Position numbers and translations under genes: made by a program
Shown: piece by piece, positions 1 to 59,800 of the stretch
Layout: every line of letters begins with the position of its first letter
How positions within the stretch are numbered: position 1 is the stretch's first letter
Source of the DNA: Bacteroidia bacterium
GTDB taxonomy: Bacteria; Bacteroidota; Bacteroidia; UKL13-3
Direction: 5' to 3'
Length of the DNA: 64,000 nt
NCBI GenBank assembly: GCA_019695215.1
Contig: JAIBAK010000016.1
Coordinates: forward strand, 676-64,675
Notes under the pieces: model-generated
The model's input: the letters and a program-made list of their open reading frames with translations, nothing else
What the model was told of the DNA's origin: nothing
Databases searched by the model: none

Positions 1-1359
1 CTTGGAGTTTGTGTATATGATCCCAATAATAGCAAAATTGATCTCTTTAAGTTTGAAACAAGTTCTGGAAAGATTCTCAGTTATATACCAATAAACAATA
101 TCCTTTTACCTTATGGTATAGAATTCTCCAAGAACGTTCGCTATATTTATGCATCAACAAGAATGAACGAACTGGTTACCTATGACATAACATCAGTTAA
201 TTCAAGCGATATTGAACTCTCCAAAATGACGTTGGCAGATTACAATAATAGCCCAATAATAACAGGGGCTTTGCAATTAGGGGTGGATTCTAAAATCCAT
301 GTTATTTTTCCAGACTCTTTATTTCTTGGGGTAATAAATTACCCAGATAGCGGAGGGGCAAAGAGTGGTTATTCTCCTTCCGATATTCAGATGAGTGGCA
401 AAAAAACGAGCCTTGGTTTACCCAACTTCCTCAGCTCCTATTTCTACCGCCCACAATTAGACTTCACTTACATTATTTCATGCACTGAACGTAATAAAGG
501 TGATTTTATACTTAAATCAGACTCTGTAATTAATACAACTAACTGGCAAATTAAACGCATTGCAACTAATACTGCTATTGCAAATTTTTCCTCATTTGCA
601 GTTAGTTATATCTTTCCTGATTCTGGCTTATATGAAGTGCGCTTAATAGCCAATAGTGATACCGTCATTAAAACAATTTTTATTGATGCTCCTATACTGC
701 CGATGACTGATACATTAGGATGTGGAGTTGACTCTGTTGTGTTAATGGTTCCCAATACTTATCGTTGTTTACAATGGGGTGATACTTCTTTTTCTGCTTA
801 CAGCCGCTCAATAAAGGCAAACGGTATTTATTACGTGCAAGGATACGATTCAAGAGGGTGTTTAATTACGGATAGTGTTAAAATTCGCTTCAGTCCATCA
901 CCTTTGCAACCGAACATAACAAAGATAAACGACAGCCTGCAAAGTAGCCCGGCATTCCTTTACCAGTGGTTATTAAATGATACGTTATTGGCCGGGGCAA
1001 ATACCCAAAGCATTAAACCTGCAAAGGCTGGCTTATATAAAGTATTTATTACTGATAGTAATGGGTGCTCCAATATGAGTACTCCCTATTCATCAAATGT
1101 AGGAATATTAAACCCTGTTGTCTCGGATAATATTCGCATTTATCCAAATCCTACAAACGATAAACTGAACGTAGAATCTGACAACAAAATAGCTGAAGTA
1201 AAAATTTATGACGTAACAGGGCGAATGGTGTATGAGCAATCAACCATTTCGGATTCATCTTTACAAATTAATTGTAACAAATTTATTAGGGGGATATACT
1301 TTATAAAAATTAATTCAAACTTAAATACCTATTACTCCCACAAAATAATTATTCAATAA
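1..1359 (+). CDS. T9SS type A C-terminal sorting domain protein, 5'-truncated by the window edge. It is paralogous to the next two genes and contains Ig-like repeats.
   Basis: The reading frame is open from base 1 with no in-frame stop before the listed ATG at 163. It shares the 'GLPNFLSSYFYRP' motif with the downstream paralogs ('GLPNFVSSYFYKD', 'GLPNFMDAKYPSEIE'). It has Cys-containing ~70-aa Ig-like repeats and a C-terminal 'IYPNPTNDKLNVES...IYFIKINS' Por-secretion tail. Confidence 0.75.
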   Translation, partial: LGVCVYDPNNSKIDLFKFETSSGKILSYIPINNILLPYGIEFSKNVRYIYASTRMNELVTYDITSVNSSDIELSKMTLADYNNSPIITGALQLGVDSKIHVIFPDSLFLGVINYPDSGGAKSGYSPSDIQMSGKKTSLGLPNFLSSYFYRPQLDFTYIISCTERNKGDFILKSDSVINTTNWQIKRIATNTAIANFSSFAVSYIFPDSGLYEVRLIANSDTVIKTIFIDAPILPMTDTLGCGVDSVVLMVPNTYRCLQWGDTSFSAYSRSIKANGIYYVQGYDSRGCLITDSVKIRFSPSPLQPNITKINDSLQSSPAFLYQWLLNDTLLAGANTQSIKPAKAGLYKVFITDSNGCSNMSTPYSSNVGILNPVVSDNIRIYPNPTNDKLNVESDNKIAEVKIYDVTGRMVYEQSTISDSSLQINCNKFIRGIYFIKINSNLNTYYSHKIIIQ

Positions 1360-1378
1360 CATTTAAAAAATTAAACCA

Positions 1379-1516
1379 ATGAGGAAGACAGTACAAATTG
1401 TCTTGATGACCTTGCTTTGTCTTTTTGCAACGCAATCACAAGCACAAATCGAACCCTGCGGCACCGACCGCATTATGCAGTATTACCGCAGCCTTGACAG
1501 CATATCTGATAAATAG
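1379..1516 (+). pseudogene. Remnant 45-codon ORF encoding a signal peptide plus the first residues of an M43 peptidase paralog (gene fragment).
   Basis: Its translation, MRKTVQIVLMTLLCLFATQSQAQIEPCGTDRIMQYYRSLDSISDK*, closely parallels the N-terminus of the 4501..10194 protein (MKQKRLFIVMTLLCLLATHARAQVPCAFDTLQQIF...). It stops after 45 aa and is followed by 317 bp of non-coding sequence. Confidence 0.55.
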
Positions 1517-1832
1517 CCAACCAAAACAACGCCAATAAAAAAATGTTTGTTATATTCAAAAAAAGTTGCTTACTTTGTTAAAGACAAAATAAACAGAAAT
1601 AAATAAAATAATATTTAAGCGTTACTAAAGTAGTTCCTCTACAATAAAACCGCGAAATTTTAACACGTAGAGGGCAGTTTGAAGTGATGCACCCTGACAG
1701 GGTGTGTTCTTCTTCTGTTCAGTTCTACGTGGGTGCTTCGCGGTACCTTGTGCAGACTGTCAGTTGGGGTTCACGCCCTTTCTGTTTTTGGGACTTTTTT
1801 CGTATATTGCTATTTACTAAATACAACTAATA

Positions 1833-4481
1833 ATGAAACGGCTGTTCGCTTTTCTTCTTCTTTCTTTAACTTTCCAGGGGTTCGCTCAGGATTATAAGCG
1901 CACCTATAACTGGTATTTTGGAGATAGTGCCGGGGTTGATTTCAATACTGTTTCCCCTACTGTATTAACCAATGGCCAAATGCACGATGATGAAGGCTGT
2001 GCAACAATATCAGATACCAGTGGCAACCTGCTTTTTTATACCAATGGTGAAACAGTATGGAATAAAAACCATCAGGTGATGGATAACGGAACTGGGTTAC
2101 AGGGGTACTTCTCTGCCACACAGGAAGTGATTATTGTACCGCAGCCAGGCAACGATAGCATATTCTACATCTTCACTATAAGTCTATTCAGGTACTCAAT
2201 AATTAATATTAAAGTAAATGGAGGATTAGGAAAGGTCATCCAGAAAAACACCTTGGTTTCTCCTATGGGGGTAACAGAAAAACTGTGCGCGACAAAACAT
2301 CAAAATGGCAAAGATGTTTGGATATTGGTGCATGGCTTTGAAAATAGTAGAGATTTTTATGCTTACCTGCTTACAGCAGATGGATTCAAAGCTTGTCCAG
2401 TCATTACAACTATTGGATCATTACACACAACATTGTCTGCGGCACAAGGGGATATGAAGTTCTCCCAAAGCGGTAAAAAATTAGCGGTATGTATTTATGA
2501 CATGAGTCAGCAATGGATAGATTTGTTTGATTTCAATTCTATGACGGGCACTCTTTCAAACTATCTAAAGGTTCCAAATATAATGTTATCATACAGTGTT
2601 GAGTTTTCCCCAAATGAAAAACTTATTTACGCAACTAACAGAATCAATAAGATATATCAATATGACATTAGTTCGGGTAATAGTACAACCATTGGTGCAA
2701 CACAAAAGGAATTATATTGGTCAGGAAATAATTCATTCAATTACCACAGGGCAATTCAAAGGGCTTCTAATGGAAAAATTTATATAACCATGATTGACTC
2801 CAATTTTCTGTCAACCATAGAGTATCCGGATTCTGCCGGACTTTCTTGTGGATTTAATCTTCATGGATTATCTTTAGGTAGTCCGAATGGAGAATATGGC
2901 CTTCCTAACTTTGTAAGCTCTTACTTCTATAAAGACACTGTTCTTAATTATACCTATGAGTTTCTCTGCCCATCCCAGCAAGCCACATTTAAAGCAAAGA
3001 ACTATACCAACACCCCTCAGTGGCAGATCACCAAACTCAGCGGAGCGGGAAGTTGGAGTTATAATGGCAGCGTAATAAATCACACTTTTGATACAGGGTA
3101 TTTTGCAGTGAAACTCTTGTCAGGAAGCGATTCCATCATTAAAAATATCCGTGTAGGTTCCAATATCCCGCTTGTAAAAACCGATACCATAGCTTGCCAA
3201 AAAGATAGCATCATGCTTGCCACCTCAAGCCCGTTTACCTGTATAAAATGGAATGACACCATTCTCTCTGACATACTTTATGCTAAGGCCAGCAATACCT
3301 ACAAAGTAGAAGTTTGGAACGATCAGGGATGCAGGTTAACCGATAGCATTAAAGTAACCATGTACCCTACCCCGCCAGACCCGCTGATTGCCACTATGCC
3401 TGATACTATCCGGTTTTGCAAGGGTACCAGCATTACCTTACAACCCGATAGCGGCAACAGTTTTATATGGCAGGACGGTTTTACTAACTCTAAAAGGAAA
3501 ATTGATACTACCGGGTTATTCTATACCTCTTTTATAGATACCAATTACTGCCAGCGCAGTGATACCACCCGTTTAATCCTCTATCCGATAGCTCCACTGC
3601 AAAAACCATTGCCTGACACGGTAAAATTCTGCAAGGGAACATGGATAAACCTTTCACCTGATAGCGGTGCAAATTTTCACTGGCAAGACGGCTATCCGTT
3701 AGCATCCCGCAGCATTGATACTACCGGACTCTTTTATACAAGCTGGGCTGACAGCTTTAGTTGCCCTCGTGGTGATACCACGCAGCTTATATTTTATCCG
3801 GTTACTCCATTACAAAAACCGCTACAGGATTCTGTTACTTTTTGTATAGGTAAGATAGTTACCCTTACCCCTGATAGCGGAGCCGGTTTTCACTGGCAGG
3901 ATAATTACCCCAATGCTAAACGGACTATTGACAGCGCGGGCCTGTTTTTCACCAGTTGGTTTGATGTAAACGGGTGTAAAATGGGTGATTCTATTCTTGT
4001 TAAAACATTTGTTGTTCCAAAGCCAACTATACAACGTATAGGCGACAGCCTGTTTGCTTCAGGTAACTTTATCCAATGGCAGTGGTGGCAGAATGGTGGG
4101 CCAAACATCGGTGCTACGGGTAAAAGTTACCGCATGATTGAAAACTCATGGTATCAGGTCTGGGGACGAGATACAGGTTGGTGTTGGGCTTTGTCAGATT
4201 CGATTCACGTTACCAATTTATCTATACCTCGACTACTTTCACCAAATGAAATTACTGTCTTTCCTAATCCGGTAAATGGGGTGCTGCATATCCGCTTGCA
4301 AACAGCGGAAAAACTCAGCGAGGTGCAATTATTCAGCGGCACCGGACAACTCGTTTATTGTGAAACCTCAACCAGCCCTTCTGAAGCTGAGATTAACTGT
4401 TCAGCATTGCCGAAAGGACTTTATCTGCTATCTCTCACTGTAACCAACAAAACCTACTACCAGAGAATCATCATCCAGTAA
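1833..4481 (+). CDS. Large T9SS-secreted protein with an N-terminal NWYFG...GLPNF domain shared with the flanking paralogs, five Ig-like repeats (three near-identical ~71-73-aa tandem copies) and a type A T9SS C-terminal domain.
   Basis: Signal peptide MKRLFAFLLLSLTFQGFAQ. The 'NWYFGDSAGVDF' and 'GLPNFVSSYFY' motifs match the middle region of the 1897-aa neighbour. Tandem repeats run YPTPPDPL.../YPIAPLQKPL.../YPVTPLQKPL... at 3363-4007. The C-terminus 'ITVFPNPVNGVLHIRL...LYLLSLTVTNKTYYQRIIIQ' is a Por_Secre_tail. Confidence 0.8.
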   Translation: MKRLFAFLLLSLTFQGFAQDYKRTYNWYFGDSAGVDFNTVSPTVLTNGQMHDDEGCATISDTSGNLLFYTNGETVWNKNHQVMDNGTGLQGYFSATQEVIIVPQPGNDSIFYIFTISLFRYSIINIKVNGGLGKVIQKNTLVSPMGVTEKLCATKHQNGKDVWILVHGFENSRDFYAYLLTADGFKACPVITTIGSLHTTLSAAQGDMKFSQSGKKLAVCIYDMSQQWIDLFDFNSMTGTLSNYLKVPNIMLSYSVEFSPNEKLIYATNRINKIYQYDISSGNSTTIGATQKELYWSGNNSFNYHRAIQRASNGKIYITMIDSNFLSTIEYPDSAGLSCGFNLHGLSLGSPNGEYGLPNFVSSYFYKDTVLNYTYEFLCPSQQATFKAKNYTNTPQWQITKLSGAGSWSYNGSVINHTFDTGYFAVKLLSGSDSIIKNIRVGSNIPLVKTDTIACQKDSIMLATSSPFTCIKWNDTILSDILYAKASNTYKVEVWNDQGCRLTDSIKVTMYPTPPDPLIATMPDTIRFCKGTSITLQPDSGNSFIWQDGFTNSKRKIDTTGLFYTSFIDTNYCQRSDTTRLILYPIAPLQKPLPDTVKFCKGTWINLSPDSGANFHWQDGYPLASRSIDTTGLFYTSWADSFSCPRGDTTQLIFYPVTPLQKPLQDSVTFCIGKIVTLTPDSGAGFHWQDNYPNAKRTIDSAGLFFTSWFDVNGCKMGDSILVKTFVVPKPTIQRIGDSLFASGNFIQWQWWQNGGPNIGATGKSYRMIENSWYQVWGRDTGWCWALSDSIHVTNLSIPRLLSPNEITVFPNPVNGVLHIRLQTAEKLSEVQLFSGTGQLVYCETSTSPSEAEINCSALPKGLYLLSLTVTNKTYYQRIIIQ

Positions 4482-4500
4482 TCCTTTAAACATATTTTCT

Positions 4501-7500
4501 ATGAAACAAAAACGACTTTTCATCGTAATGACTTTGCTTTGCCTTTTGGCAACCCATGCGCGGGCACAGGTGCCCTGCGCTTTTGACACCCTCCAACAGA
4601 TTTTCAGTACCCAACCCGGTTATTGGCCCTTGCATAAGGGACATGAAAACCGGATTGATTACTATCGTAACCATCCTTCGGAAATTAACGAACAATACCG
4701 GCCGGGGCCAAACTCAGAAGCATCCACCTGTTTTAAGACAAGGTTTATGATTCCTGTAGTGGTGCATATTGATAGCAGCGGAGGAACCGTAAACGTAACC
4801 AGCACCCAGGTACAAGACCAGTTGGATGCTGTAAATACCATCATGAAGAATTATGGCATTCAATTATGTCTTGCCCAGAAGAAACCAAACGGAACCAGCT
4901 TTAGCGGCATCAACTATTTTAACGGGGCTTCGGTTGATAACCGCATCAGTTATCAATTGCCGTCTCTTACCAATATCCTTTACTACAATCCTAAAAAATA
5001 CCTGAACATTTATATCGTGCCTACCATTCTGAATGATAATTACAGCACAAGTACCTATGGGGGATACAATAATATTTTTCCCGGACAAAAAGGATTGGAC
5101 GGCATTGTGATACTGCATACCCGTTTTGGAAATTACCAAACCTGTTCAGGTTGTAATTTGGATGCAAATGCAAGGGGATTGGTGCTGGTTCATGAGCTGG
5201 GGCATTACCTTGGCTTGTGGCATACTTTTGAGGGAGGTTGTTCGGGAGGTAATACGGCAGGCACCTGTTCAACTCAGGGTGACCATTGTTGCGATACCCG
5301 CCCGGTAGCTACACAAAACTTTCTTTGCCCTTTACCTACCCCATCTTTAAGTTGTAGCAACACGGCTTATTACACAAGCAGCTTTGCGGAAAACCGGAGC
5401 AATTACATGGACTATGCCGAAGAACCCTGTAAAACCAATTTTACCTCTGACCAACAATCAATCATGTACAGTTCCTTGCTGGGGCCACGGAGTGAACTGG
5501 TGAGCGGAGAAAATCTTGACACATTGGGGCTGGCCTGCTGCTTTAAAACGGCTTGGTTTACGACTAACACCAATTTTTATTGCACAAGTGATATGGACAG
5601 CATCAGGCTAACGGCCTATCAAGGTGCATCTACCTACAGATGGCAAATTAAGGACAGCGTGAGCGGACGAACTGTTTTTGATACCGTTACCACCTCTAAA
5701 ATTTTCACTTACATGCCTGATAGTGCAGGTAAATATAATATCACCCTGCGTACCATTTACAGTAGTGGCGACACAGTGGAAATGAAACGAATCATGTATA
5801 TTGAGATATCTGATTGCAATACTCCGATAGCATCTACAAAAGGTAATTGGTATTTTGGGCAATGGGCTGGATTGAGATTCACTACCAACGGAGTCTTCAG
5901 GGATATGGGGCCTTGGATTAATCAGCTTCCTGATAACATTTTCACGGGTGAAGGCAGTGTAAGTATCAGTAACCCGCAGGGGCAACTATTGTTTTACGCA
6001 GGGGGAGATTTGTATGCCCCGGGTTATATGAATGTGTACAACAAAAAATATAAGCAGTTTCATACAAGCCCGGTGAAGGGGGATATGAGCAGTGCGCAAA
6101 CTGGAATCATATTACCCTCACCTAAGAATAAACAACGGTATTATCTTTTTACGGTGTCCGGTCTTGATGCTAATGTAACTTTATCTTTGAACAATAGTGG
6201 ATTCAGGTATTCCATCGTTGATACAACCGTAATAGACCTGAGCGATCCAAACGATCCAATTTATTGTGAGATTGACACACCAAATTTCAAAGATGTTCCG
6301 ATTAAAGCTCCGTCAGGGTCGCAATTCCACCCGGTAGACAGTTCCCTCATCTGCGGGGAGATGATTACCGCTGTTTCCAAGTGTAACGGGCGCGATTATT
6401 GGATTATTGTTGTAGATCGTTCGGCCAATGATTCGTTATATGCCAATTACCACAAACTACTTGTCTATTCATTAGATTCGGCAACGGGAGTTACGTTTAG
6501 CCATGTAAGCAGTTTCCGGTTAAGTATTGATGGTGGGAACGGAAATTATGCCTATGGTCAATTAAAGGCTTCGCCTGACGGAACCAAACTGGCTGCTCCG
6601 GGGTATGTGATGGAGTTTAACCGAATTACCGGAGCCATCACTATTATAGATTCTATGAGCGCTCCGGCACCAGATATATGGGCCTGTTCGTTCAGCCCTA
6701 ATTCAAAACGGTTATTCTATCTGGTCAATATTGACGCTTACACATCGGGTTTTCATCAATACAACCTGGAGGATTCAAGTGATGTTGTTATAGACACACT
6801 GCCCGAGTTTTTCGGCAATGCGATGCAACTCGGGCCTGACAATAAAATTTATATGGCGCAGATTGGACTTTCTCAATTAGGTATGATTAGCAACCCGGAT
6901 GAAGTGTATGACCCTAATAATCCTTCTTCGATTGATTACACAGCTGAAGGCCCTAAAATTGGAAGCAATGGAATTGGAGGAATGTGCCTGACGGGGCTGC
7001 CCAATTTTATGGATGCTAAATATCCTTCCGAAATAGAAAAGAAAATAGAATATGCACAGACAGGTTGTTTTAATTTCAAATTCACCAACACCGTATGCTG
7101 TACAGAAACTTTTAAATGGTATTTTGGTGACGGAGACAGTGCCAGCGGAAAAACCGTCAACCACACTTATGATTCGCTAAAATATTACTACGTGATGCTT
7201 ATTGCAGGCAGTGACACGCTAAGGGATACCATCAGGGTAGGAATAGATCAACCGATTATTGCAGGAAGCACCAATGCTATTTGTGATACCGTACATTTTA
7301 ATACGTATTCGGTTGGCAACAGGGTAACTGATTTAGTTTACCAATGGTTGGTGGATGCACCAAACCAAATGTACGTAGATAATTACGGAGGAGCCAATGT
7401 GAGCTGGAAGCAGGATAGTTCTTATATCCGGCTTAAAGCAACCAGCCCCGGTGGATGTAAGGATTCAAGCGAGGTAATGATTACCATCAGGCCACCTTTA

Positions 7501-10194
7501 ACCAACTATAACATTTCCCCAAGCCAGATCATTTGCTATGGTACACAGCCGGACACTATTGTTGGAGATACACCTACAGGTGGTACGCCTCCATACCGTT
7601 ACCAGTGGTTCATGAGTACCGACACTTCGCTAATCAAAGTCTGGACTAAACTTACTAACGATACGTTGATCCACTACCTGCCGGGGGGTCTGTATCAGAC
7701 AACTTATTTTACCCGGGTGACTGGCTCTGGTGAATGTCCCGGTGAAAGCAACGTAGTCGAAGTAAAAATATCACGGGTATTAAATGACAGTATCTGGAAG
7801 GACACCTCCGATTGTGATGACATATTGGGTTCTACTCCAGTTAGTATTTCAGGCATTCAATCCTATTTCTGGGAAAGAAGCTCCAACGGCACAAGTTGGG
7901 AAACGATTTCCGGTGAAACACAAAAAGATTTAAAATATCCGGTGTTCTTTGATACAACCCATGTAAGACGGATAGTAACCGATAGCAATGCCTGTTCATC
8001 TACCAGCAATGTGGTTATTCCTGCCATTTTCGCGGGTGATATTACTTATTCAGGTGATACCCTTTGTACAGGAAATGCTTTGTATGTTTCCGGTAATGCT
8101 CCGTGTAGCGGTAATAAAACCATAAGTTATCAATGGCAATACCGGAAGTTAGGCACAACTAATTATGTCAATCTGGGTGGTACAGGAACGTTACAAAATT
8201 ATTCTCACAGTAGTTGGACAGACAGTTGTTATATCATAAGGGAAATGACCTCGTTTGGAAAATTTTCTTATAGCGATTCGGTACTGATCCCGATGCGTCC
8301 GTTATTAATAAATTACCTTCTGGAAAATGGAGATACTACGTGTCCGGGAAGAAATCTTCATACTATTGATGGAAGTTTCTCCTGCATAAGTACAAAATAC
8401 TTTTTCAGGTGGCAAACCACTACAGACACCACCGGAACATGGGATGATATTTGGGGGGCTACAGCATATGATTACAGCCCACCTCCTGCAAGTGTGACAA
8501 CATACTATCGCAGGCGGATGGTTTACAGTGTAACAAGTGATACCACCTACACAAATGTATATACTATTTCGGTGATGGCCCCTGCAATTAGTTCCCAGCC
8601 TTCCAATGTCACCGTAAATGATGGCGGTGCGGCCAGTTTCTCCATTAGTATGACCGATATGACCCTGTTGCGATGGGAAAAAAGAACAGGCACTTCCCCA
8701 TTTTATACTTGGGTAACCGTTGCTCCCGGCACAAGCCCATATAGTTTTGTTACTGATTTATGCATGAATGGTGGGGTTTACAGGGCAGTGGTATTTAACC
8801 ATTGTACTAATGCTGCGGAATACAGCTCGGAAGCGGTACTCACTGTTAATTCTCTAAATTATGACTTATGGGCAAAGGATAATGAGTCCGATATTTTTGC
8901 ATCAGAACCTTCGACCGGATTTATATGGAACAGCCCGGATATATGGAACAGAAAAAACAACGACACTTCATCTGTTCATGAAAATCCTGAGTACAGATGG
9001 ACTGCTCCTAATTACCTCAGAGCAATTGTGCGCAACACGAATAACGCAACCAGTGTTCCTGCCAAATTATTTGTATATTGGACCTTTGCCAGTACCGGTG
9101 AACGATGGGACAGGAACTGGCTTAGTAATACCTCAAACAACGATTCGGTAAGTGGCAATTGGAAAACCTATTATGGTACAAGAAAAGGGCTTGGCGGATT
9201 AATAGGTGAATACAATATTCCGGCACTTGCACCCAGCGAAGTATATAAGGTAAGTACAAGTTGGATAGTACCCGATCCGGGTATTGTGGTTGGAGATTCC
9301 AACGCGAGTAATCAGGCCGATATTTGTTTCCTGAGCCGAATTGTAACCTGTACGAATCCAAATTATGGAATGCACGTATCGGAAACAATGAGTATAGGTG
9401 ATAATGTAAGGAAGAACAATAATATCATCACTAAGAATTTTGTGGTATATGATGCACTACCCGGTAATGGAAGGGTAAGTTGGGGTGGTAATGGAAATCC
9501 TAATGATGGTGCTTCGGCAACAGGTGTACTACGTCTTAGGGCAGGAAACTGTGATTTCTTCCGATACGGGTATGTTATTTTACATCTCGACCCAACACTG
9601 CAAAACATCTGGACAAATACGGATGGTTCGGGATATACAGTAGTCGATGATTCAACACTTATGGTAGATACCTGCGTTGAGGTGGTGATGGAAAATATTG
9701 CTTACGAAGCAGGTCAGTATGGATTGTTGGGGGTGGAATTTGTGATGCGTAATGATTACACTACCCTGTCCACTTTTGATGCTTTCTACGAATTTGACCT
9801 TGAGGAAATGCTGAATGAGGATACAGTTTCCATTGGAGGAATTCACTATGGTGTTCCAATGCACATTGAACCGCTGCCGGAAAGTGGAATGCAAAGACGC
9901 ATACCTTCGGATAATAAACAGGCTATTGTAGGAAAAACCAGTTTCCATGCTTACCCTAATCCGTTTACTGACCAGCTCACAATAAATTATCATATCCCTA
10001 AAGAGGAGCAAGTGAATATTGTAATCACAAATCTGCTTGGGCAAAAGGTTGCAATTATTGAAAACAATACCTTTAAGCAATCAGGCATACATAAATTTAC
10101 TTTTAATTCTGCTGCGCTTAAAGAAGGAATTTATTTCATTAACTTCACCGCTGGTTCATACACCCAAACACAAAAGGTTGTATTGATAAGATAA
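4501..10194 (+). CDS. Secreted multidomain M43 (pappalysin/cytophagalysin-like) zinc metallopeptidase, 1897 aa, with the shared NWYFG/GLPNF domain, multiple Ig-like (SprB/HYR-like) repeats and a T9SS type A C-terminal domain.
   Basis: Signal peptide, then the zinc-binding motif 'LVLVHELGHYLGLWHTFEGG' (HExxHxxGxxH typical of M43B pappalysin-type metzincins). Downstream are 'NWYFGQWAGLRF' and 'GLPNFMDAKYP', many Cys-bracketed ~80-aa repeats ('PPYRYQWF', 'YQWQYRK', 'FFRWQTT'), and the C-terminus 'FHAYPNPFTDQLTINYHI...GIYFINFTAGSYTQTQKVVLIR'. Only 19 bp separate it from the upstream paralog, so the two are probably co-transcribed. Confidence 0.85.
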   Translation: MKQKRLFIVMTLLCLLATHARAQVPCAFDTLQQIFSTQPGYWPLHKGHENRIDYYRNHPSEINEQYRPGPNSEASTCFKTRFMIPVVVHIDSSGGTVNVTSTQVQDQLDAVNTIMKNYGIQLCLAQKKPNGTSFSGINYFNGASVDNRISYQLPSLTNILYYNPKKYLNIYIVPTILNDNYSTSTYGGYNNIFPGQKGLDGIVILHTRFGNYQTCSGCNLDANARGLVLVHELGHYLGLWHTFEGGCSGGNTAGTCSTQGDHCCDTRPVATQNFLCPLPTPSLSCSNTAYYTSSFAENRSNYMDYAEEPCKTNFTSDQQSIMYSSLLGPRSELVSGENLDTLGLACCFKTAWFTTNTNFYCTSDMDSIRLTAYQGASTYRWQIKDSVSGRTVFDTVTTSKIFTYMPDSAGKYNITLRTIYSSGDTVEMKRIMYIEISDCNTPIASTKGNWYFGQWAGLRFTTNGVFRDMGPWINQLPDNIFTGEGSVSISNPQGQLLFYAGGDLYAPGYMNVYNKKYKQFHTSPVKGDMSSAQTGIILPSPKNKQRYYLFTVSGLDANVTLSLNNSGFRYSIVDTTVIDLSDPNDPIYCEIDTPNFKDVPIKAPSGSQFHPVDSSLICGEMITAVSKCNGRDYWIIVVDRSANDSLYANYHKLLVYSLDSATGVTFSHVSSFRLSIDGGNGNYAYGQLKASPDGTKLAAPGYVMEFNRITGAITIIDSMSAPAPDIWACSFSPNSKRLFYLVNIDAYTSGFHQYNLEDSSDVVIDTLPEFFGNAMQLGPDNKIYMAQIGLSQLGMISNPDEVYDPNNPSSIDYTAEGPKIGSNGIGGMCLTGLPNFMDAKYPSEIEKKIEYAQTGCFNFKFTNTVCCTETFKWYFGDGDSASGKTVNHTYDSLKYYYVMLIAGSDTLRDTIRVGIDQPIIAGSTNAICDTVHFNTYSVGNRVTDLVYQWLVDAPNQMYVDNYGGANVSWKQDSSYIRLKATSPGGCKDSSEVMITIRPPLTNYNISPSQIICYGTQPDTIVGDTPTGGTPPYRYQWFMSTDTSLIKVWTKLTNDTLIHYLPGGLYQTTYFTRVTGSGECPGESNVVEVKISRVLNDSIWKDTSDCDDILGSTPVSISGIQSYFWERSSNGTSWETISGETQKDLKYPVFFDTTHVRRIVTDSNACSSTSNVVIPAIFAGDITYSGDTLCTGNALYVSGNAPCSGNKTISYQWQYRKLGTTNYVNLGGTGTLQNYSHSSWTDSCYIIREMTSFGKFSYSDSVLIPMRPLLINYLLENGDTTCPGRNLHTIDGSFSCISTKYFFRWQTTTDTTGTWDDIWGATAYDYSPPPASVTTYYRRRMVYSVTSDTTYTNVYTISVMAPAISSQPSNVTVNDGGAASFSISMTDMTLLRWEKRTGTSPFYTWVTVAPGTSPYSFVTDLCMNGGVYRAVVFNHCTNAAEYSSEAVLTVNSLNYDLWAKDNESDIFASEPSTGFIWNSPDIWNRKNNDTSSVHENPEYRWTAPNYLRAIVRNTNNATSVPAKLFVYWTFASTGERWDRNWLSNTSNNDSVSGNWKTYYGTRKGLGGLIGEYNIPALAPSEVYKVSTSWIVPDPGIVVGDSNASNQADICFLSRIVTCTNPNYGMHVSETMSIGDNVRKNNNIITKNFVVYDALPGNGRVSWGGNGNPNDGASATGVLRLRAGNCDFFRYGYVILHLDPTLQNIWTNTDGSGYTVVDDSTLMVDTCVEVVMENIAYEAGQYGLLGVEFVMRNDYTTLSTFDAFYEFDLEEMLNEDTVSIGGIHYGVPMHIEPLPESGMQRRIPSDNKQAIVGKTSFHAYPNPFTDQLTINYHIPKEEQVNIVITNLLGQKVAIIENNTFKQSGIHKFTFNSAALKEGIYFINFTAGSYTQTQKVVLIR

Positions 10195-10251
10195 GGGGCT
10201 CTCAAACAGAAATACCGGGTGTCCTGACGTTACAGTTAGGATACTCGGTTT

Positions 10252-11013
10252 TTAATCCACCGAATCATATTTCTCAAGTAATTTGAGAAACACTTCGAAG
10301 TCTTTAGGGTAAGGAGCGGTGAATAATTTTTCTTCCCCTTTTAATTCAAAATGTATCTGGTAAGCATGCAATGCCACCCGTTTCATCATGGGTTCCTCGT
10401 TGCTCCATTTACCTGTTTTAAACTTTCGTTTCACCGATGACAGCATGGGCTTTTTTCCACCGTACAACTCGTCTCCCACTATCGGAAAATTTTGAGATGC
10501 AAGGTGCACACGTATCTGGTGTAAACGCCCCGTGAGCGGCTGGCATCCTACCAGCGTAAAATGCCCGAAATATTTTAAGGAATGAAATATAGTAACCGCC
10601 TCTTTTCCCCTTCCGTAATCAATAACGGCAATGCCTTTTGAGTTGGTATGCAGGGGAAGTTTCACTTCTGTCTCGTTAAATTCGGCATGATCGGCTACCA
10701 CGGCATGGTACAATTTCCCAACATTTCTGTTTTCTAACTGTATGGCAATTTCCCTATAGGTTTCCTGATTTTTTGCAATGATGAGTACCCCGCTGGTTTC
10801 TTTATCGAGCCGGTGACAAAGACTTGCCGTAGCGCAATATTTTTTTGCCATTGAAACTATGCTCGGGCCTTCTCCGGTGCGTTCGTCCAATGAAGAGATA
10901 TGCGGTGGCTTGTTCAGGATAATCAGGTCGTCATCTTCATGTATGATGAGTTCCGGAAAACGGGGAAATTTAATCTGCTTTGCTTCCATATAATGAAGCC
11001 GCAAATTAAACAT
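10252..11013 (-). CDS. RluA-family 23S rRNA/tRNA pseudouridine synthase.
   Basis: Catalytic motif 'HRLDKETSGVLIIAKN' (conserved Asp in the HRLD box) and 'GRLHQIRVHLAS'. It overlaps the histidine kinase stop by 1 nt. Confidence 0.8.
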   Translation of the reverse strand: MFNLRLHYMEAKQIKFPRFPELIIHEDDDLIILNKPPHISSLDERTGEGPSIVSMAKKYCATASLCHRLDKETSGVLIIAKNQETYREIAIQLENRNVGKLYHAVVADHAEFNETEVKLPLHTNSKGIAVIDYGRGKEAVTIFHSLKYFGHFTLVGCQPLTGRLHQIRVHLASQNFPIVGDELYGGKKPMLSSVKRKFKTGKWSNEEPMMKRVALHAYQIHFELKGEEKLFTAPYPKDFEVFLKLLEKYDSVD

Positions 11014-17475: not shown

Positions 17476-19332
17476 TTACCTTAATAATGTTACCGAGCCG
17501 GTATATTTTTTTGCATGATGTTCGAGCACATAATAATATACCCCCTCACTCAACGGGCTCCCTTTAAAATTTCCGTTAAAGCAGGTTCCGTCTTTGTCCG
17601 AATCAAAAATCAATTCCCCCCAGCGGTTGTATATAAATATTCGCGAACAACCCTGCTCTAAGGTAAGCCCTCGAAGAGCGAGGCATTCATTCAATCCGTC
17701 TTTGTTCGGAGTAAAAACATTATAAACCATCACCAGCGAATCGCTGCTATACGGAGTAATTGTTTTGGAAGCCGTATCCGCACATCCGCTGTCGGTAACA
17801 ATAAATTGTAACTCATAGGTTTTATTAAACTCATAAGGTAATTGTACCAGCTCTTCCCTGTTAACTGCAACTCCGTCTAAAAACCATTTACTTTGATTTA
17901 CCACCCCGGGAGAATCAATTTGCAATTTAGCATCTTTACACAAAGGTTTAAACTGATATTTATAATCAGCTTTTACATCAACCACAAAAACATGAACCGT
18001 ATCGGTGTTTACACAAACATCGGTATTTCGGGTAGCAACATACGTAATGGAAAAAGGAGGTTTGGCCGTTGGTTCGCCCGAAGCAGGATTGTCGAGGTAA
18101 TCGGGAGGCGACCATGTATAGGAAAAGCTACCGGTATTTTCTGTACCCAGAACTAAGGAATCTCCCTTACAAATGAGCCGGTCCTCTCCGGCAAACGTGC
18201 CTATATCTTTATCTATCGTTACGCTAACTAATGCAGAGTCGGAGCAATTGCCTTTGTAAGTAACTAACTTTACAATATAAGTTCCGGTTGAAGGATAAAT
18301 ATAAGTTGGCTCAGGTTGTGTGCTTGAATCGGAAGTAATTAATGTGTCGCCAAAATCCCATAAATAAGAAACGGCACCTACACTTTGATTTACAAACTTA
18401 ACGGTGTCGCTGCACAGGTGCATGTCTTTACTGAATGCGCTTACCACATCAAACTGACAGTTCAGCACGTTGAATTGAAAATCGCGAAGGGTTGAATTTA
18501 TAAATTTTCCGTTCCTGAATTCTTTTACCAGAATGCCCACCACATATTGTCCTGTTAACTGTGGCTTTACCTTTAGTAAACCCGTTTGGGGATGAATAGT
18601 AAGTTCCGGCACTCCCTTCATCATACTGTTCACTCCAAAACCATTTACCCAAACCACCTTTGAATAAGGAGGTGGTGATGGCGGGCGTGGAAGGTTATTA
18701 AAAAAATTGGCCCCGATAAACGGCTGGTACAATTCGTACACGAGTGAGTCTCCGTCTGCATCTGTTGCGGCATGACTGTAAATAAAATCACGTCCGGCAC
18801 ATAAAAAATTTGGAGGAAGCGAATTAAATACGGCTGACGAATTATATCCTTTCCCTCCTGTTGTATCCGGTATGTGACACCAGTACGTTGCCCCCACCTG
18901 TCCCGGAGTTTGGATATTGGTGATGGAATTATTTCGGCAACAACGCTGAAATGCCAGAATGTATCCACCGGCAATTTGGGGTAATGTAGTGTAATAGGTG
19001 TAAATGTATTTATCTACACAGGCATTTGGCGGGGGAGCTACGCAATTATAATTAACCGAATTTACTCTGACCGGAGGGGTTCGGTATTCCAGAATATTTT
19101 TCACTAAAGTACCACTGGTATCAAATACCCCAATCATGGCATTTGTGTCAAGTGCAATGGCCTGTTGCGAACCAAAGGCACAGTCGATATACAAAATGAG
19201 TTTTACCTCAAAACTATCATCAGCAATATGACGATACGTGATATCTCCTCCCACAATATGGGTAGCATTTACTTTTGTTGCATAAACCAAAGCAACAAGA
19301 AAAAATAAAATAGGATATAATCGTTTAATCAA
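17476..19332 (-). CDS. Secreted adhesin-like protein with a PKD domain and a T9SS type B (gliding motility-associated, CHU_C) C-terminal domain.
   Basis: Signal peptide. PKD motif 'YLWDFGDT'. C-terminus 'YNVFTPNKDGLNECLALRGL...IYNRWGELIFDS...GVYYYVLE' is characteristic of TIGR04131-type type B sorting domains. Confidence 0.8.
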   Translation of the reverse strand: MIKRLYPILFFLVALVYATKVNATHIVGGDITYRHIADDSFEVKLILYIDCAFGSQQAIALDTNAMIGVFDTSGTLVKNILEYRTPPVRVNSVNYNCVAPPPNACVDKYIYTYYTTLPQIAGGYILAFQRCCRNNSITNIQTPGQVGATYWCHIPDTTGGKGYNSSAVFNSLPPNFLCAGRDFIYSHAATDADGDSLVYELYQPFIGANFFNNLPRPPSPPPYSKVVWVNGFGVNSMMKGVPELTIHPQTGLLKVKPQLTGQYVVGILVKEFRNGKFINSTLRDFQFNVLNCQFDVVSAFSKDMHLCSDTVKFVNQSVGAVSYLWDFGDTLITSDSSTQPEPTYIYPSTGTYIVKLVTYKGNCSDSALVSVTIDKDIGTFAGEDRLICKGDSLVLGTENTGSFSYTWSPPDYLDNPASGEPTAKPPFSITYVATRNTDVCVNTDTVHVFVVDVKADYKYQFKPLCKDAKLQIDSPGVVNQSKWFLDGVAVNREELVQLPYEFNKTYELQFIVTDSGCADTASKTITPYSSDSLVMVYNVFTPNKDGLNECLALRGLTLEQGCSRIFIYNRWGELIFDSDKDGTCFNGNFKGSPLSEGVYYYVLEHHAKKYTGSVTLLR

Positions 19333-31819: not shown

Positions 31820-33877
31820 TTAACGGCTGATAATGAATTTTTGAGTCGAAGTAAATCCGTTGGCTCCTTTAATGGTTACAAAATACACCCCGTTAGATAA
31901 ATCGGATGTACTGAATACCATGCTCTGATCGCCTGAAGTTAATTCGCCTTTATTTTCTGATAAAATAACACGCCCGGTAATGTCCATTATTTCCATAGTG
32001 ATATTGTCATTATTCACTAGGTTAAAATCAACCATTACATAGTTATTGGCAGGGTTTGGATAAACATTAACTGCATTTACGTTTGCCGGTTGTTTTACCG
32101 AAAGATTTCCGTTTAAAACTGACCAGTTAGAGTTATATACTTCTTTGGTAGTAGCATGCTGCAAAAACACCACTACTTCCAGATCGCTGAACTCTTCAAC
32201 CGAATGTTCTGTGCTCAGGTTAATTCTATTAGCTGATTGACCATCAATAGGCAGACGGAAAGTTCCCGGGAAGGTATAAGTTTGTGTAAATGTTTTGGTA
32301 CTTCCGGCTGTCATTGCAGTAACGGTAGTACCGCCAATAGCAGGGAGCATTTTCTTTAACACATGGTGAAATACGGTTTCGCCATTAGTCTTCTTATTCT
32401 GGTAGGTGTCTTTTTCAAGCACCGCAATATATAACTTGGTTGAGTTACTGATATCGGCATACGGTTTAATCATTACGTCAACTTTAATGGTTTGTCCGGT
32501 TATGGTATGTACGGCATAGATATCCAAAATAGCGGGTTTGCTCTGATACTGATCAAACAATGCCGAAGTATAACTTCCAGCATTTCCATCCCATCCGCCA
32601 TCTAATTCCATGCGTGGAATACTGTTAATAGCATAGGTAGATGACCTGCGGGTTACGCTCTCCGAAGTGCAATAAGGGTCGCCTGTGCCCGGAAAATCCT
32701 GCTGGTATTTTATTACAGTATAATCATTGATACTTTTTGAATTAACAATATTGGTCATGTTCACATTACCCGGTGCACATGGTCCGCAGGTTGACGAACT
32801 GAATACCTCATGCAATAACCTGCGATGCCCCAGTTGCGAAACCACAATGGTTGTAGCCCCAAGTGTATCATTTGATGTGTTCACATCGGCATTTGCCCCG
32901 TTAAGGTTGCTAGCCCATACTTTTATACTTTTAGCACCTACCGTAGTGCCTTTGTAAGGAGTAGTGTGCGCAAATGCATAAGTTCCTCCGCTTGCATTAA
33001 TGTTTACCCCTGTTACGTTCTGCGACACAACTGCTCCTCCGTCAACTGCATAGTTCAGTTTAAATGAGGTAATGGCAGTAGCACCCGGATTACTGATGGT
33101 TCCGGCTATTACCACATTCACATTTAACGCTGCGTAGGGAGCAATATTCAATTTGGTTACGCTCAAATCAAAGGCAGGCTGTGTTCCGTAAATAAACTTG
33201 TACACTTTGTCATTGGCATTCCCGGATGAACCTACCCGATTTGGAAAATCTGCAGAAGGACCTCCAATCATGGTTCCTGTGATTCCGGCTGAATTCTGGC
33301 ATCCCATAGTTCCGGTAAACGCTGCGCTGTTTGGCGAAGCATCATTGTACACAATATCAAAATTACCGGCTTCGAATAAACGAACGGCAAAATAAGAATA
33401 GTTGGATGATCCGGCAGCTACCCCTTCCTGTGAAGCGGTGAACCATTGTATAACATGAACCCGGTTTGGTGCAGTTCCATAGGTAAAATTCCTCACCTCT
33501 GTTTTTACCGAACTTCCTGAAATGGCTTTCATTTCCAAAGCATCCCAAAAGGCAAAAATGGCATTTTTAGGGGCCGATGCCGAAGGAATGGAAACGTTAG
33601 CCGATATACTGCTTGTTTCGGCATTATCAAAAGTAATATACCCGTTATCGCTGGCCTTGTATTGGGTAACAGCACTTCCGTAGTAATTAAAAGCAAACGG
33701 AATAGTTTGAGCTGTTGAAAGTACGTCATTGCTTCCCTGAGCCAGAATGACAGTTCCCGTGTTCAGCATGTTGTAATCGGTGGTGGTACCCGACTGCATC
33801 AGGTAATAATAGTTTTGCGCATAAGCGCCCATGCCTGCAAAAGCGGCAAAAACCAAACTGAGTATTTTTTTCTTCAT
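31820..33877 (-). CDS. T9SS type A C-terminal domain cargo protein with a thioredoxin-like CGPC-containing segment.
   Basis: Signal peptide. 'RRLLHEVFSSSTCGPCAPGN'. C-terminus 'VNVYPNPANNYVMVDF...GVYFVTIKGANGFTSTQKFIISR'. Confidence 0.75.
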   Translation of the reverse strand: MKKKILSLVFAAFAGMGAYAQNYYYLMQSGTTTDYNMLNTGTVILAQGSNDVLSTAQTIPFAFNYYGSAVTQYKASDNGYITFDNAETSSISANVSIPSASAPKNAIFAFWDALEMKAISGSSVKTEVRNFTYGTAPNRVHVIQWFTASQEGVAAGSSNYSYFAVRLFEAGNFDIVYNDASPNSAAFTGTMGCQNSAGITGTMIGGPSADFPNRVGSSGNANDKVYKFIYGTQPAFDLSVTKLNIAPYAALNVNVVIAGTISNPGATAITSFKLNYAVDGGAVVSQNVTGVNINASGGTYAFAHTTPYKGTTVGAKSIKVWASNLNGANADVNTSNDTLGATTIVVSQLGHRRLLHEVFSSSTCGPCAPGNVNMTNIVNSKSINDYTVIKYQQDFPGTGDPYCTSESVTRRSSTYAINSIPRMELDGGWDGNAGSYTSALFDQYQSKPAILDIYAVHTITGQTIKVDVMIKPYADISNSTKLYIAVLEKDTYQNKKTNGETVFHHVLKKMLPAIGGTTVTAMTAGSTKTFTQTYTFPGTFRLPIDGQSANRINLSTEHSVEEFSDLEVVVFLQHATTKEVYNSNWSVLNGNLSVKQPANVNAVNVYPNPANNYVMVDFNLVNNDNITMEIMDITGRVILSENKGELTSGDQSMVFSTSDLSNGVYFVTIKGANGFTSTQKFIISR

Positions 33878-56825: not shown

Positions 56826-59800
56826 CTATCCTTTAATTATCAGTTTCTTTTTTTGAACCAATATCCCATCTTTAAATATAACTAACATGTAAACGCCCGG
56901 TGTTAATTGTGATATTTCACAGGATATAGTATTCACCCCTTCCTGCTTTATTGTACGCAACTCAATAATTCTTCCGGTTACATCTACAGCTTTAATATCA
57001 AAATTCCCTATGTTTTCTTTCGTTATAAAATCACTCGAAATATTAACTATTTGCTTTGCCGGATTTGGATAAATACGGTATTCTTTATTTTCTATTATCA
57101 TTTGGTTGGAATTAGGTTCTTCCCGTTTGCCATAAAACACTTCATTATTCACATCCGTTTCAGTAATTGCACCGCAGGAATAGGAAATAGAGCTACTGCG
57201 CTCTGACCCTGTGGTGCCTACAAGTGTTACATCGAAATATAAACTATACATACCTGATGGAATAGAGTAAGTGGGACTGTACCCGTAAAAATACCAGTAA
57301 TTAGATGTGAGATGAAGGGCGTGGTAACTGCTATTGGTTACATTACCTCCAATACTGTATGATGCCGGACTTGAAGAATAGTTTGGATAATAAAACGTAT
57401 TGTTTCCGTCTAAGGTTAATAAATCAAAAGCGTCACTAAGACCAATATCATAATCGGCAACATTAGTAAACCGGTTGTTGCCGCCTGCCACATTTGTAGT
57501 ACCCGCTGCATTTGAGCCGTTAGTGGCTGTACTAAGGTTCAACGTTACACCACTTCCTGCAAGTACAGAGGCGTTGTTATCTTCAAATTCGCTACAGGAA
57601 ATGGTTGCTTGCAGCGTACCAAATACTTCTACAGCCGAACCATTCTCAGAAAATAACGACTGTTCTATTAACAGGTGTGCATTGGTGCCTCCACTATAGT
57701 AAATGCCCTTTTGAGATGAGCCTAAAATACGACCTTTAAACTGACTCAGCCCTTCCATTTCGGTGGCGTACCAGGCATAATCGCAATTGGTAAACTGGTT
57801 ATTGTTCAGATAAGCCCGGTAACCTTCGGTAACAATGGCTTTTTCACAATCGGTAAATTTGCACCCGCGTATTTCAAACAAGGTCACATCGGATGACGAT
57901 AGTTTATTTAAGGCAATTTTTGCCTTACCGAATTCACAAAATTTTACAGTAAGACTGCTTCCATTTTGACCATCAAAAGTTATTCCCTGAAATTTATCTG
58001 AAGTAGCCCATGGCAATGGAGCAAACTTCACACTTTCTAAATGAGTGGAAGATGAAGTTTTTATCTCCGCATCTTCTCCCATTTCTACCAATCCATTTTT
58101 TAGTTCCACCCCGTTGTAACCTGATGCATTAATTCCTCCTCCTATCACACGTAACATCAGGTCAGTTTTGTTACTACCCTCTAATGTTATAGAGCAACTG
58201 CCTGTTTTACTAATAGAAGCGTAGCCGCTGCTTTGCGAAATAATTGTGATAAAACCACTTCCTGTAAAAGTGAGATCATAATTATCCAACTCTAGGTAAC
58301 CGCCCATTTCAAGATTTGATCCGTCATCCTGGAGGGTTATGGTTCCTCCGTTTAACTCAAGAGTAGCCCCAGGCTTAATGGTGAGCTTGGAGTTTTTATA
58401 AATTTTTAAACTGGCACCGGGATTCAATATTAAACGGGAACCCGAATTAATGGTAAGCCCTGCGTGGTGGTCGGTGCCGGCATCGCCAAGTTGCAACTCG
58501 CCATTTACAGTAATGGTAACGGGGTCAGATGTGCAGTTGTTGTCGTGTATAAAGGTTTCTACAAAATAGGTAGAGCCCACCGGAGGTTCATCGTTATTGT
58601 AATTATCATCGGTGTACCCGGCTTTTACATTTTTATTTATGGCCAAAGTACCGTTCACAGTTACATCGCCCACCCAATCACTTACAGGCGCCCCATAGTT
58701 GTAGGTTTTACCAGAGGGTATAGTGGCCGGAGCGGTGTTGAGCATTTCGTTTTCGAAAATTTTAACGGAATGGGAAGTGAAAGCTGTATGTCCACCATTA
58801 CGCAGACTATCGGGTGGAGGAGTGGCAAGGTCATCCTGCGTAATGTATCTTTTGGCTCTTACCTTTGAATAAGGATCTGTATTTACCAAATAATTAAAGT
58901 CCTTTTCCGATGTATCAACTGCCGATGCGCTGATGGTGGGGACAAAACACAAAAAAGGAAATGCTCTATTTATTTTTTTCTTCCCCAAACCTTCTGTGAT
59001 GCTCGCACCTGCAATGGCATCCAAACCACCTACACTGCCGGGCTTATTATCCACACCATTCCACATACTCGATGGAGCTATAGTGCGGGCATAATACGGA
59101 TATACAATGGTTTTATTAATTTTATTTACGATGGCTCCGTTAAAAACAACCTTGCTCGGTGTACCGGATTCAGGCATGGCCCATATACTAAATACTAATC
59201 CGTGTAATGCCTTTTTATTATGTAAATGAAAACTCTCATCATAGCCTGCCAGTAAGTCACCTGCATTCATTGGTACCCAGGTAGCGCCTACTTTAACCCC
59301 TTGGCTAAAAGCGGTACCCGAGCCGTTGGCAATGGTTACCATTTTACAACCCAGTCCGTCAACCGGGGCAATAGTATTTAGTTCCTGATAAAATGAATCG
59401 TGCAATCCGGAATAAGTGGTATTGTATTTAAAAACGTAATTAATGAGTAACTGGCGAACTGCCGGGCAGGTTAATGTTTTATAATCCCACCACACATCGG
59501 CTGCTTCAACACGGGGTATGTATTGCCCGTATGTAAAATAATACCTGTACATGGCATTGATAAAACCCTGCATACCCAGCGAAGCATTGGCTCCGCGATG
59601 GGGCGAATCGTGGGTAATGAGCAAACGGGTATCGTGGTCGGCCGAATCATTGTCAAGGTACTGCTTATGCATTTTACCCAATGCATAACGCGAAATGATA
59701 CCGCCCAGGCTGTTGCCAAACACCACATTTTGCGCATGCGAACCATTCACCTCTTTTTCATGATTTACCCATTTAATAATATCCTCAAATACCAGTGCAT

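Follow-up and report, generated by a model that had tools for sequence, protein, structure and literature searches.

A T9SS cargo gene cluster of a Bacteroidia bacterium with a putative M43 protease gene stump and a structured RNA ahead of a beta-propeller gene

Our analysis concerns a 64,000-nucleotide stretch of DNA from an uncultured Bacteroidia bacterium (GenBank assembly GCA_019695215.1, the 66.5-kb contig JAIBAK010000016.1, positions 676 to 64,675 of the forward strand), hereafter the window, and in particular its first 10,194 positions, where the genes P1, P2, and P3 encode predicted type IX secretion system (T9SS) cargo proteins and a 45-codon open reading frame (ORF) lies between the first two. 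With a probability of roughly 0.75, we read this as a T9SS cargo cluster in which P1 is followed by the stump of a second P3-like gene (here called M43a), then by a structured leader RNA with a promoter-like box ahead of it, and finally by P2 and P3, with P2 never having had a protease head. In this arrangement, P2 and P3 would be made as one transcript behind the box and the leader; the beta-propeller and PKD-like module of the proteins would bind, and P3 would add a pappalysin-type zymogen head in front of it. The protein side of the locus is real but ordinary T9SS cargo-family evolution, the stump being ordinary gene-family turnover, and the most notable content is an uncatalogued RNA. On the + strand of 1..10194, the order is the 3' 1359 nt of P1, the 45-codon ORF, a gap of 316 nt, P2, and P3, with the following features.

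<1..1359, + strand: P1, 3' two-thirds inside the window; full protein of 677 aa (P0017 / MBX7205130.1)
1360..1378, + strand: spacer of 19 nt from the P1 stop to the stump ATG
1379..1516, + strand: putative stump (45 codons) of the P3-like M43 gene M43a; in NCBI, hypothetical protein K1X81_06885
1501..1545, + strand: junction, poorly conserved (58% identity to contig L001, see below)
1571..1577, + strand: promoter-like box TACTTTG, Bacteroidetes-type and -7-like, by pattern match only
1619..1810, + strand: structured leader RNA (core match of the covariance model at 1630..1793)
1833..4481, + strand: P2, 882 aa, MBX7205132.1
4482..4500: spacer of 19 nt from P2 to P3, identical in length to that between P1 and the stump
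4501..10194, + strand: P3, 1897 aa

The P1 gene begins ~675 nt to the left of the window, whose edge cuts it, and P1, the small ORF, and P2 are MBX7205130-32. An initial annotation of this DNA had described three consecutive same-strand genes, paralogous to one another, and a small ORF paralleling the start of P3 as the remnant of an M43 gene, all of which our alignments bear out. In the stump, a predicted signal peptide, with its likely cleavage site behind AQA, leads into the opening ~23 residues of a putative prosegment, among them a cysteine at the position of the pappalysin cysteine switch (by comparison with PMC11674741). With the N-terminus of P3 it shares 15/38 identities (~39%), and both reading frames begin exactly 19 nt past the stop of a paralog that ends in IIIQ*. 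This pair aligns with a score of 77, and none of 114 propeller-family signal peptides scores above 35; against the M43 homolog P0124, which begins with almost the same 46 residues, the score of the stump reaches 197.

Used alone as a query, the stump retrieved only itself and its L001 copy among 5.8 billion clustered proteins, and its intact parent was recovered only via homologs of the M43 head and their cluster members. In L003, the contig of P0124, a gene ending in '...KIVIQ*' is followed by 18 nt (a spacer resembling the 19 nt between P1 and the stump), an ATG, and a frame that continues into the full catalytic domain. At ~905-915 of L003 the M43a frame shifts by one base, so that the gene call stops at 321 aa though the homologous frame runs to the contig end; the likely cause is misassembly, L003 being a metagenome contig of low coverage. 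From the 90% cluster of P0124, protein P0243 is complete (1898 aa) and has the architecture of P3, to which it is 40% identical overall and 75% in the last ~100 aa. It is to residues 1-41 of P0243 that the stump corresponds most closely, with 39/41 identical (95%), and no other P0243/M43a-like segment was found within 1300..1900. Moreover, the accession of P0243, which is encoded on a 35.5-kb contig, comes directly after that of P0016 (MBX7206042/43), a 675-aa P1-type protein ending in KIVIQ. On these comparisons, the stump is the 5' end of a separate P3-like gene, M43a, one that belongs after a P1-type rather than a P2-type gene. Its collinear 5' homology, premature stop, and loss of everything downstream mark it as a pseudogene fragment.

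The same arrangement is seen in contig L001, which stems from a different assembly (metagenome-assembled genome [MAG] SW_8) and shows a P1-like gene, a 46-codon stump 18 nt past its stop, a leader, and a P2-like gene. In the window and in L001 alike, homology to M43a breaks off at a TAG stop, and the two stops align with each other; the truncation is therefore common to both and older than the split between the window MAG and MAG SW_8; the last five stump codons differ between the two, an indel included, and the block of promoter and leader begins just past the end of the M43a homology. Either the body of M43a would have been deleted in place, or only its 5' end would have been copied there by partial duplication or ectopic recombination.

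Several observations weigh against this account. The stump is 92.6% identical between the two MAGs, compared with 78-87% for the adjoining P1 coding DNA, which is odd for a dead fragment and suggests either constraint, acting on the peptide or on the DNA (for example as the region upstream of a promoter), or a recent recombination tract running from stump to leader. P1 and P0016 are only 48% identical, and the two loci are therefore not simple orthologs. The accession numbers of P0016 and P0243 lie ~910 above those of the window proteins, and by this numbering an intact M43a may sit on another contig of the same MAG, which would favour partial duplication over deletion in place. In that case the genome would keep two M43-headed giants. 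The initial claim that only the third gene carries an M43 head stands for this locus alone; a second intact M43 giant is probably on another contig of the same MAG submission.

Among the alternatives, one that we regard as unlikely takes the stump as the junction of a tandem duplication, in which a leader-propeller gene-M43 unit was duplicated with its right breakpoint in codon ~46 of the M43 gene, so that the stump would never have been complete at this place. The end of P1, the spacer, and the stump do parallel the end of P2, the spacer, and the start of P3, with 19 nt in both spacers, and the promoter and leader directly after the stump are as such a model predicts. However, a single duplication predicts that the stump resembles the P3 start about as much as P1 resembles P2 (~42%), with no near-perfect match to a third gene, whereas the stump is only ~39% identical to the P3 start and 95% identical to M43a; a tandem duplication survives only if gene conversion from M43a came later. 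A shade less probable still is that the 45-codon ORF is a functional small gene, which would encode a secreted ~23-aa cysteine-containing peptide or, as a DNA element or upstream ORF, act on the adjacent promoter. Two MAGs have this ORF undamaged and with the whole of its signal peptide, and its nucleotide identity, as just mentioned, is higher than that of the neighbouring coding DNA. In contrast, the changes between its two copies (about 4 non-synonymous and 3 synonymous by hand count) show no clear constraint at the protein level, its C-terminal five codons vary, and only two copies were found in the protein search.

Very improbable is the model of the initial annotation, by which P2 was once M43-headed like P3, the head was lost with the stump left behind, and a new signal peptide arose; we consider this central inference to be wrong. 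The stump does lie upstream of P2 on the same strand, and fusions of M43 and propeller domains exist (P3 itself and, elsewhere, P0078). Yet the signal peptide and first residues of P2 (…FQGFAQDYKRTYNWYFG) are homologous to those of P1, P0016, and >100 family members, all of which start with a signal peptide and continue directly into AQDYKRTxNWYFG, so that the P2 start, MKRLFAFLLLSLTFQGFAQDYKRTYNWYFG, is the standard start of the family rather than a new acquisition. In addition, the 316 nt between the stump and P2 are mostly the promoter box and a conserved RNA common to other operons of the family, P2 resembles P1 and not P3 past the propeller, and the intact gene of the parental type follows a P1-type gene. 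On this evidence, P2 would never have had a protease head. Finally, a chance likeness between signal peptides, which are compositionally alike and share only the 15/38 identities here with P3, has next to no probability left in view of the 39/41 identity to P0243 and P0124, the same spacer and upstream gene end, and the low scores of the control signal peptides, so that the resemblance goes beyond generic signal-peptide composition.

Besides the stump, the cluster as a whole bears traces of the duplication and recombination that had been proposed for it. When window 1379-1832 is aligned with L001 17630-18088, the region 1546..1832 is 96-100% identical, as compared with 55-87% for the flanking coding DNA, and selection on the RNA may explain this conservation of the leader between the two MAGs. 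Sharp breakpoints in identity to L001 lie near window positions 600 and 1900, with P2 falling from 76% to 55%, and the 3' part of P2 is 67-71% identical to other L001 paralogs at their 3' ends; these breakpoints and cross-matches mark the P1 and P2 genes as mosaics, at window ~600, ~1900, and ~3000-3600. The GC content climbs from about 0.37 to 0.44 inside P2 near position 3000. Related contigs carry the same kind of operon: L005 and L006 have the leader, one or two propeller genes of 662-666 aa, a spacer of 4-11 nt, and then an M43-headed gene of 1685 or 1690 aa, which has its HExxH near residue 233 and shares 36-38% identity with P3 along >1000 aa, and L002 has the leader, a P2-like gene, 19 nt, and the start of an M43 gene. 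By gene order, then, a leader, one or more propeller genes, and an M43 giant form a conserved unit in this clade. Small genes of XRE-type helix-turn-helix (HTH) proteins are found between propeller paralogs in L001 (12502-12732, - strand) and L006 (9080-9392, - strand).

Between the stump and P2, positions 1619..1810 are a structured RNA of ~190 nt, with strong covariation beyond shuffled and slid controls. Its elements, on the + strand as many G-U pairs indicate, are these.

1640-1644 / 1748-1752: helix G
1649-1656 / 1737-1744: helix B
1664-1671 / 1724-1731: helix F
1672-1677 / 1715-1720 and 1681-1684 / 1709-1712: helix D
1687-1707: helix C, a hairpin
1636-1642 / 1667-1673: alternative helix A, which competes with F and D
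1766-1779: terminator-like hairpin E, with a U-run after it to 1789

The leader folds at -70.5 kcal/mol (z = -4.4 against shuffled controls). Folded singly, the diverged copies each adopt one and the same nested rod, G>B>F>D>C, and mononucleotide shuffles place them at z between -6 and -8. Here, the structure was drawn from a hand-derived model, a covariance model, and folds of the individual sequences, RNAalifold having given an inconsistent result for the diverged leaders as aligned by MAFFT alone. A degenerate pattern, with helix B and the terminator as its anchors, returned 90 metagenome contigs, and the covariance model gave 102 matches, 88 of them distinct, with a GC content of 34-65%. 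Across the 88 distinct sequences, in an alignment (A8) made by fitting to the model, the share of paired cells is 87.3%, as compared with 66.7% after shuffling, and the covariation score is 0.487, as against 0.161 for shuffled alignments (0/500 shuffles reach the observed value) and at most 0.10 for slid partners. Double changes occur in 38 of the 42 pairs. Part of the conservation seen in the sequence of helix B and of the terminator comes from the search pattern itself. Helix G, which lies outside the model, is paired at 94.2% in a fixed register over 60 distinct arm sequences, compared with 54.6 +/- 1.5% for permuted arms. The 15 nt upstream of it show complementarity to the rod's 5' strand, with a mean z of -2.2 (73% under -1.5), a pairing that competes with helices F and D. 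As a hypothesis, the G-rich loop before helix B might pair with the 3' arm of the terminator, these two showing general complementarity and no convincing covariation.

As for its occurrence, the leader recurs upstream of a second L001 paralog, with diverged copies in L002, L005, and L006, and its homologs are placed as follows.

L001: 9801-9962 and 17888-18051
L002: 9803-9968
L005: 9786-9947
L006: 6451-6615
L073-L162: further homologs

The Bacteroidetes -7 promoter has the consensus TAnnTTTG, and in each of the eight Bacteroidia copies a -7-like box precedes the RNA by 49-86 nt. Matches to Rfam 15 were absent for the whole window at the gathering score, limited to chance-level hits to unrelated families for 1500-1900 at E<=10, absent at the motif in 15 homolog-bearing loci at the gathering score, and absent in eight loci at E<=1. 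Moreover, the RNA had no hit in 2.9 million IMG/VR viral contigs, and literature searches with its motif sequence strings gave no match.

A same-strand ORF begins <60 nt past the end of the RNA in 49 of 81 cases (median 52 nt), and the 81 downstream ORFs match 44 Pfam families, the commonest being XRE-type HTH with six ORFs. Starts that look like signal peptides are modestly enriched among them by a crude heuristic (24/81, as against 39/225 in the background). Genes of the XRE type recur beside the motif in 15 metagenome loci, divergently upstream or directly downstream, and it is possible that their products regulate the RNA-linked genes. Two copies of the RNA lie within 8 kb in L001, and two each in L084, L103, L142, and L153. 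In L084 (1-3476) and L103 (9534-11082), a unit of the motif and an ORF of ~95-120 aa is tandemly duplicated, with an ORF for a group II intron-type reverse transcriptase between the two RNA-ORF copies of L084. In L077, the motif is followed on its own strand, after ~315 nt, by a DUF805 RNA (RF03081; 3287-3352, - strand).

Known RNA types were considered in turn. A metabolite riboswitch was set aside for want of a consistent association with one pathway among the downstream ORFs, and 6S RNA for want of a match to RF00013 or RF01685 and for the presence of two copies in several contigs, which is not the pattern of a single-copy housekeeping RNA. No support was found for a T-box, a retron non-coding RNA, an integron attC site, a phage put-like RNA, or an IS200/IS605-type element, the grounds being the absence of Rfam matches and viral hits, the lack of a consistently adjacent reverse transcriptase or recombinase, and the G-U-based assignment to the + strand. 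We read the element as a putative cis-acting leader with a switchable fold and a terminator; it could alternatively be a stand-alone small RNA. More broadly, and at somewhat less than even odds, it may represent an undescribed and widespread RNA class (rod of five stacked and covarying helices, internal loops around helix B that are conserved in sequence, competing 5' helix, and terminator) that would serve as a switch or attenuator before diverse genes, often for secreted proteins, and that would gate the T9SS operon here in response to a protein or ligand. If so, it would be a new RNA class across many environmental lineages and, if a regulatory switch, would join the small number of cis-acting RNAs known to control how T9SS cargo is expressed.

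Turning to the proteins, full-length P1 comprises a predicted signal peptide, a beta-propeller, a PKD-like domain, cysteine-bracketed immunoglobulin (Ig)-like modules, and a type A T9SS C-terminal domain (CTD). P2 and P3, both on the + strand, divide as follows.

1833-1886: P2 predicted signal peptide
1887-2966: P2 beta-propeller, predicted to be seven-bladed
about 2967-3167: P2 PKD-like domain
about 3168-4232: P2 cysteine-bracketed Ig-like modules, three ~71-aa repeats among them
4257-4478: P2 type A CTD
4501-4740: P3 predicted signal peptide and putative prosegment with Cys26
about 4831-5502: P3 M43 catalytic domain (HELGHYLGLWH at aa 231, NYMDY at aa 301)
between the M43 catalytic domain and the beta-propeller: P3 PKD-like domain
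5845-7035: P3 beta-propeller
7048-7245: P3 PKD domain
between the PKD domain and the CTD: P3 Ig-like modules and about 400 aa that are not assigned
9952-10191: P3 type A CTD

All three proteins end, as had been stated, in type A T9SS tails, with PF18962 scores of 60.6, 50.0, and 48.8 bits for P1, P2, and P3 (cut-off 27) and TIGR04183 scores of 50.6, 45.6, and 44.6 bits (cut-off 23); the description of the trio as giant fits P3 alone, P1 and P2 being far shorter. Typical n-, h-, and c-regions of signal peptides are visible in the translations of all three. T9SS cargo proteins cross the inner membrane by Sec and the outer membrane by the T9SS, and upon removal of the CTD they remain at the surface or enter the medium. 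By analogy, P1, P2, and P3 should follow this route. Judged solely by their 19-nt spacing, P2 and P3 are probably co-transcribed.

By alignment, P1 and P2 share 35% identity along 317 aa (E 2e-56), a further segment of the pair matches at E 5e-29, and their global alignment at full length gives 42%. Residues 26-454 of P2 match residues 449-926 of P3 at 28% identity (E 2e-24), and the similarity of P1 to P3 within the window is weak (E 2e-4). The three are true paralogs within one propeller family. Tandem Repeats Finder detected no DNA-level tandem repeats in 1..10300, despite the protein-level repeats of P2.

What the three have in common is a ~360-aa NWYFG...GLPNF region followed by a PKD-like domain. 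The initial annotation could not assign this region to a named family. It indeed has no dedicated Pfam or NCBIfam model, and a comparison of P2 with lactonase, YVTN, and WD40 Pfam families yielded a sole hit, Beta-prop_EML_2, at 16.7 bits (cut-off 90). Its predicted structure, however, is a common fold, and a known fold of that sort misread as locus-specific paralogy was among the outcomes that the initial annotation had itself named as refuting it. An AlphaFold2 model built on 44 homologs is all-beta, with a predicted local distance difference test (pLDDT) score of 93.8 and a predicted template modelling (pTM) score of 0.92, and Foldseek matched it with a probability of 1.00 to G-beta, the designed seven-bladed 7bid, 1l0q, and 4qrj (TM-scores of 0.44-0.57). 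The shared domain is thereby modelled as a seven-bladed beta-propeller, the blade number being taken from the Foldseek matches rather than counted on the model, and by inference it is most likely a binding module.

Nor is the domain specific to this locus. It is found in all 120 best homologs of P2, in most of them directly after the signal peptide, and a HMMER scan of 1.84 billion cluster representatives returned 12,237 with the propeller at E<=1e-10, carrying up to four copies. The homologs end in type A or type B T9SS tails, and some hold two propellers. Together, the propeller and the PKD-like module define a very large family of Bacteroidota surface proteins, which, at >12,000 clusters of 50% identity and with no curated model and no functional study, deserves to be flagged; no experimentally studied member was found. 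On the protein side, the locus illustrates how T9SS cargo diversifies, by paralog arrays, mosaic recombination, a pappalysin head placed on a propeller, and a truncated gene copy.

The head of P3 was identified by Peptidase_M43 (PF05572) at 57.4 bits (cut-off 23; E 2.1e-15; aa 162-324), a model that had no match in P1, P2, or the stump. In sequence searches it resembles ulilysin (3.6e-18), mirolysin (3e-11), and the human pappalysins, and its zinc motif HELGHYLGLWH (HExxHxxGxxH) and NYMDY align with HEIGHWLNLYH and NYLDY of ulilysin. Cys26 of P3 lies four residues past the predicted cleavage site, and Cys27 of the stump five residues past. Homologs of the head number more than 1,100, and most of those that score best are ~700-aa proteins of M43, PKD, and CTD. 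On sequence grounds, P3 is best read as a protease with a pappalysin-type (M43) head and a presumed zymogen latency, joined to what is probably a binding module. Residues ~1440-1800 of P3 (window ~8820-9900) have no Pfam match and are conserved in P0243 and in the orthologs of L005 and L006. A query of the protein collection with the first 445 aa of P3 retrieved no P3 entry at or near 100% identity, although P1, the stump, and P2 from the same contig are there, and P3 may be annotated differently in the source record.

Downstream of P3 lie housekeeping genes on the opposite strand (pseudouridine synthase, a two-component pair, a thioredoxin-like protein, and GatB), and the cluster therefore ends at 10194. 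Elsewhere in the window, further T9SS cargo genes are located at 17476-19332, 31820-33877, and 56826-60932 (all - strand), of which one has a type B CHU_C tail with PKD, one a type A tail with an Omp28 domain, and one encodes a 1368-aa type A protein.

Regarding known systems, riboswitch and attenuator leaders with an intrinsic terminator and the processive-antitermination leaders EAR and put serve for the RNA as analogies only. Like these, the RNA comes after a promoter-like box and ahead of the gene that opens a long, probable operon, and like attenuator-type leaders it appears to combine a conserved multi-helix fold, internal loops conserved in sequence, the alternative helix A, and a hairpin with a U-run. 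Unlike a metabolite riboswitch, it precedes very diverse genes; it also differs in matching no Rfam 15 family and in occurring in several copies on some contigs.

Among proteins annotated as 'Gliding motility-associated C-terminal domain' or T9SS sorting-domain proteins, P1 and P2 are ordinary members, with a predicted signal peptide, the NWYFG propeller at the N-terminal end, modules of the PKD/Ig-like kind, and a CTD of type A or B. The Methanosarcina surface-layer protein (1l0q, a YVTN propeller with PKD) is similar in fold and in its order of propeller then PKD, and the lactonase-like propellers (4qrj from Bacteroides, PF10282) in predicted fold, some homologs having weak PF10282 hits; sequence identity to 1l0q and 4qrj is only 13-14%, and we claim a match at the fold level and not family membership.

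For P3, the closest comparison is with the cytophagalysin and mirolysin group (MEROPS M43B; PMC11674741, PMC6949598, PMC8259862), with which it shares a predicted signal peptide, a putative short, cysteine-containing prosegment, and a cysteine-rich, multi-domain C-terminal extension with a T9SS-type CTD. Cytophagalysin CPL1 has a 19-aa signal peptide, a 47-aa prosegment with the putative switch cysteine C24, the zinc ligands H231/H235/H241, and the general base E232 (PMC11674741). In P3, the numbering H231/E232/H235/H241 is the same, Cys26 corresponds in position to Cys24 of CPL1, and a YMDY segment is found where CPL1 has its Met-turn and Tyr switch. In contrast, the extension of CPL1 consists of eight Ig-like domains and that of mirolysin is almost absent, whereas P3, at 1897 aa, is larger and inserts a predicted seven-bladed beta-propeller, PKD domains, and ~400 unassigned aa. 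By its domain content, P3 is a new, larger architecture within a known family.

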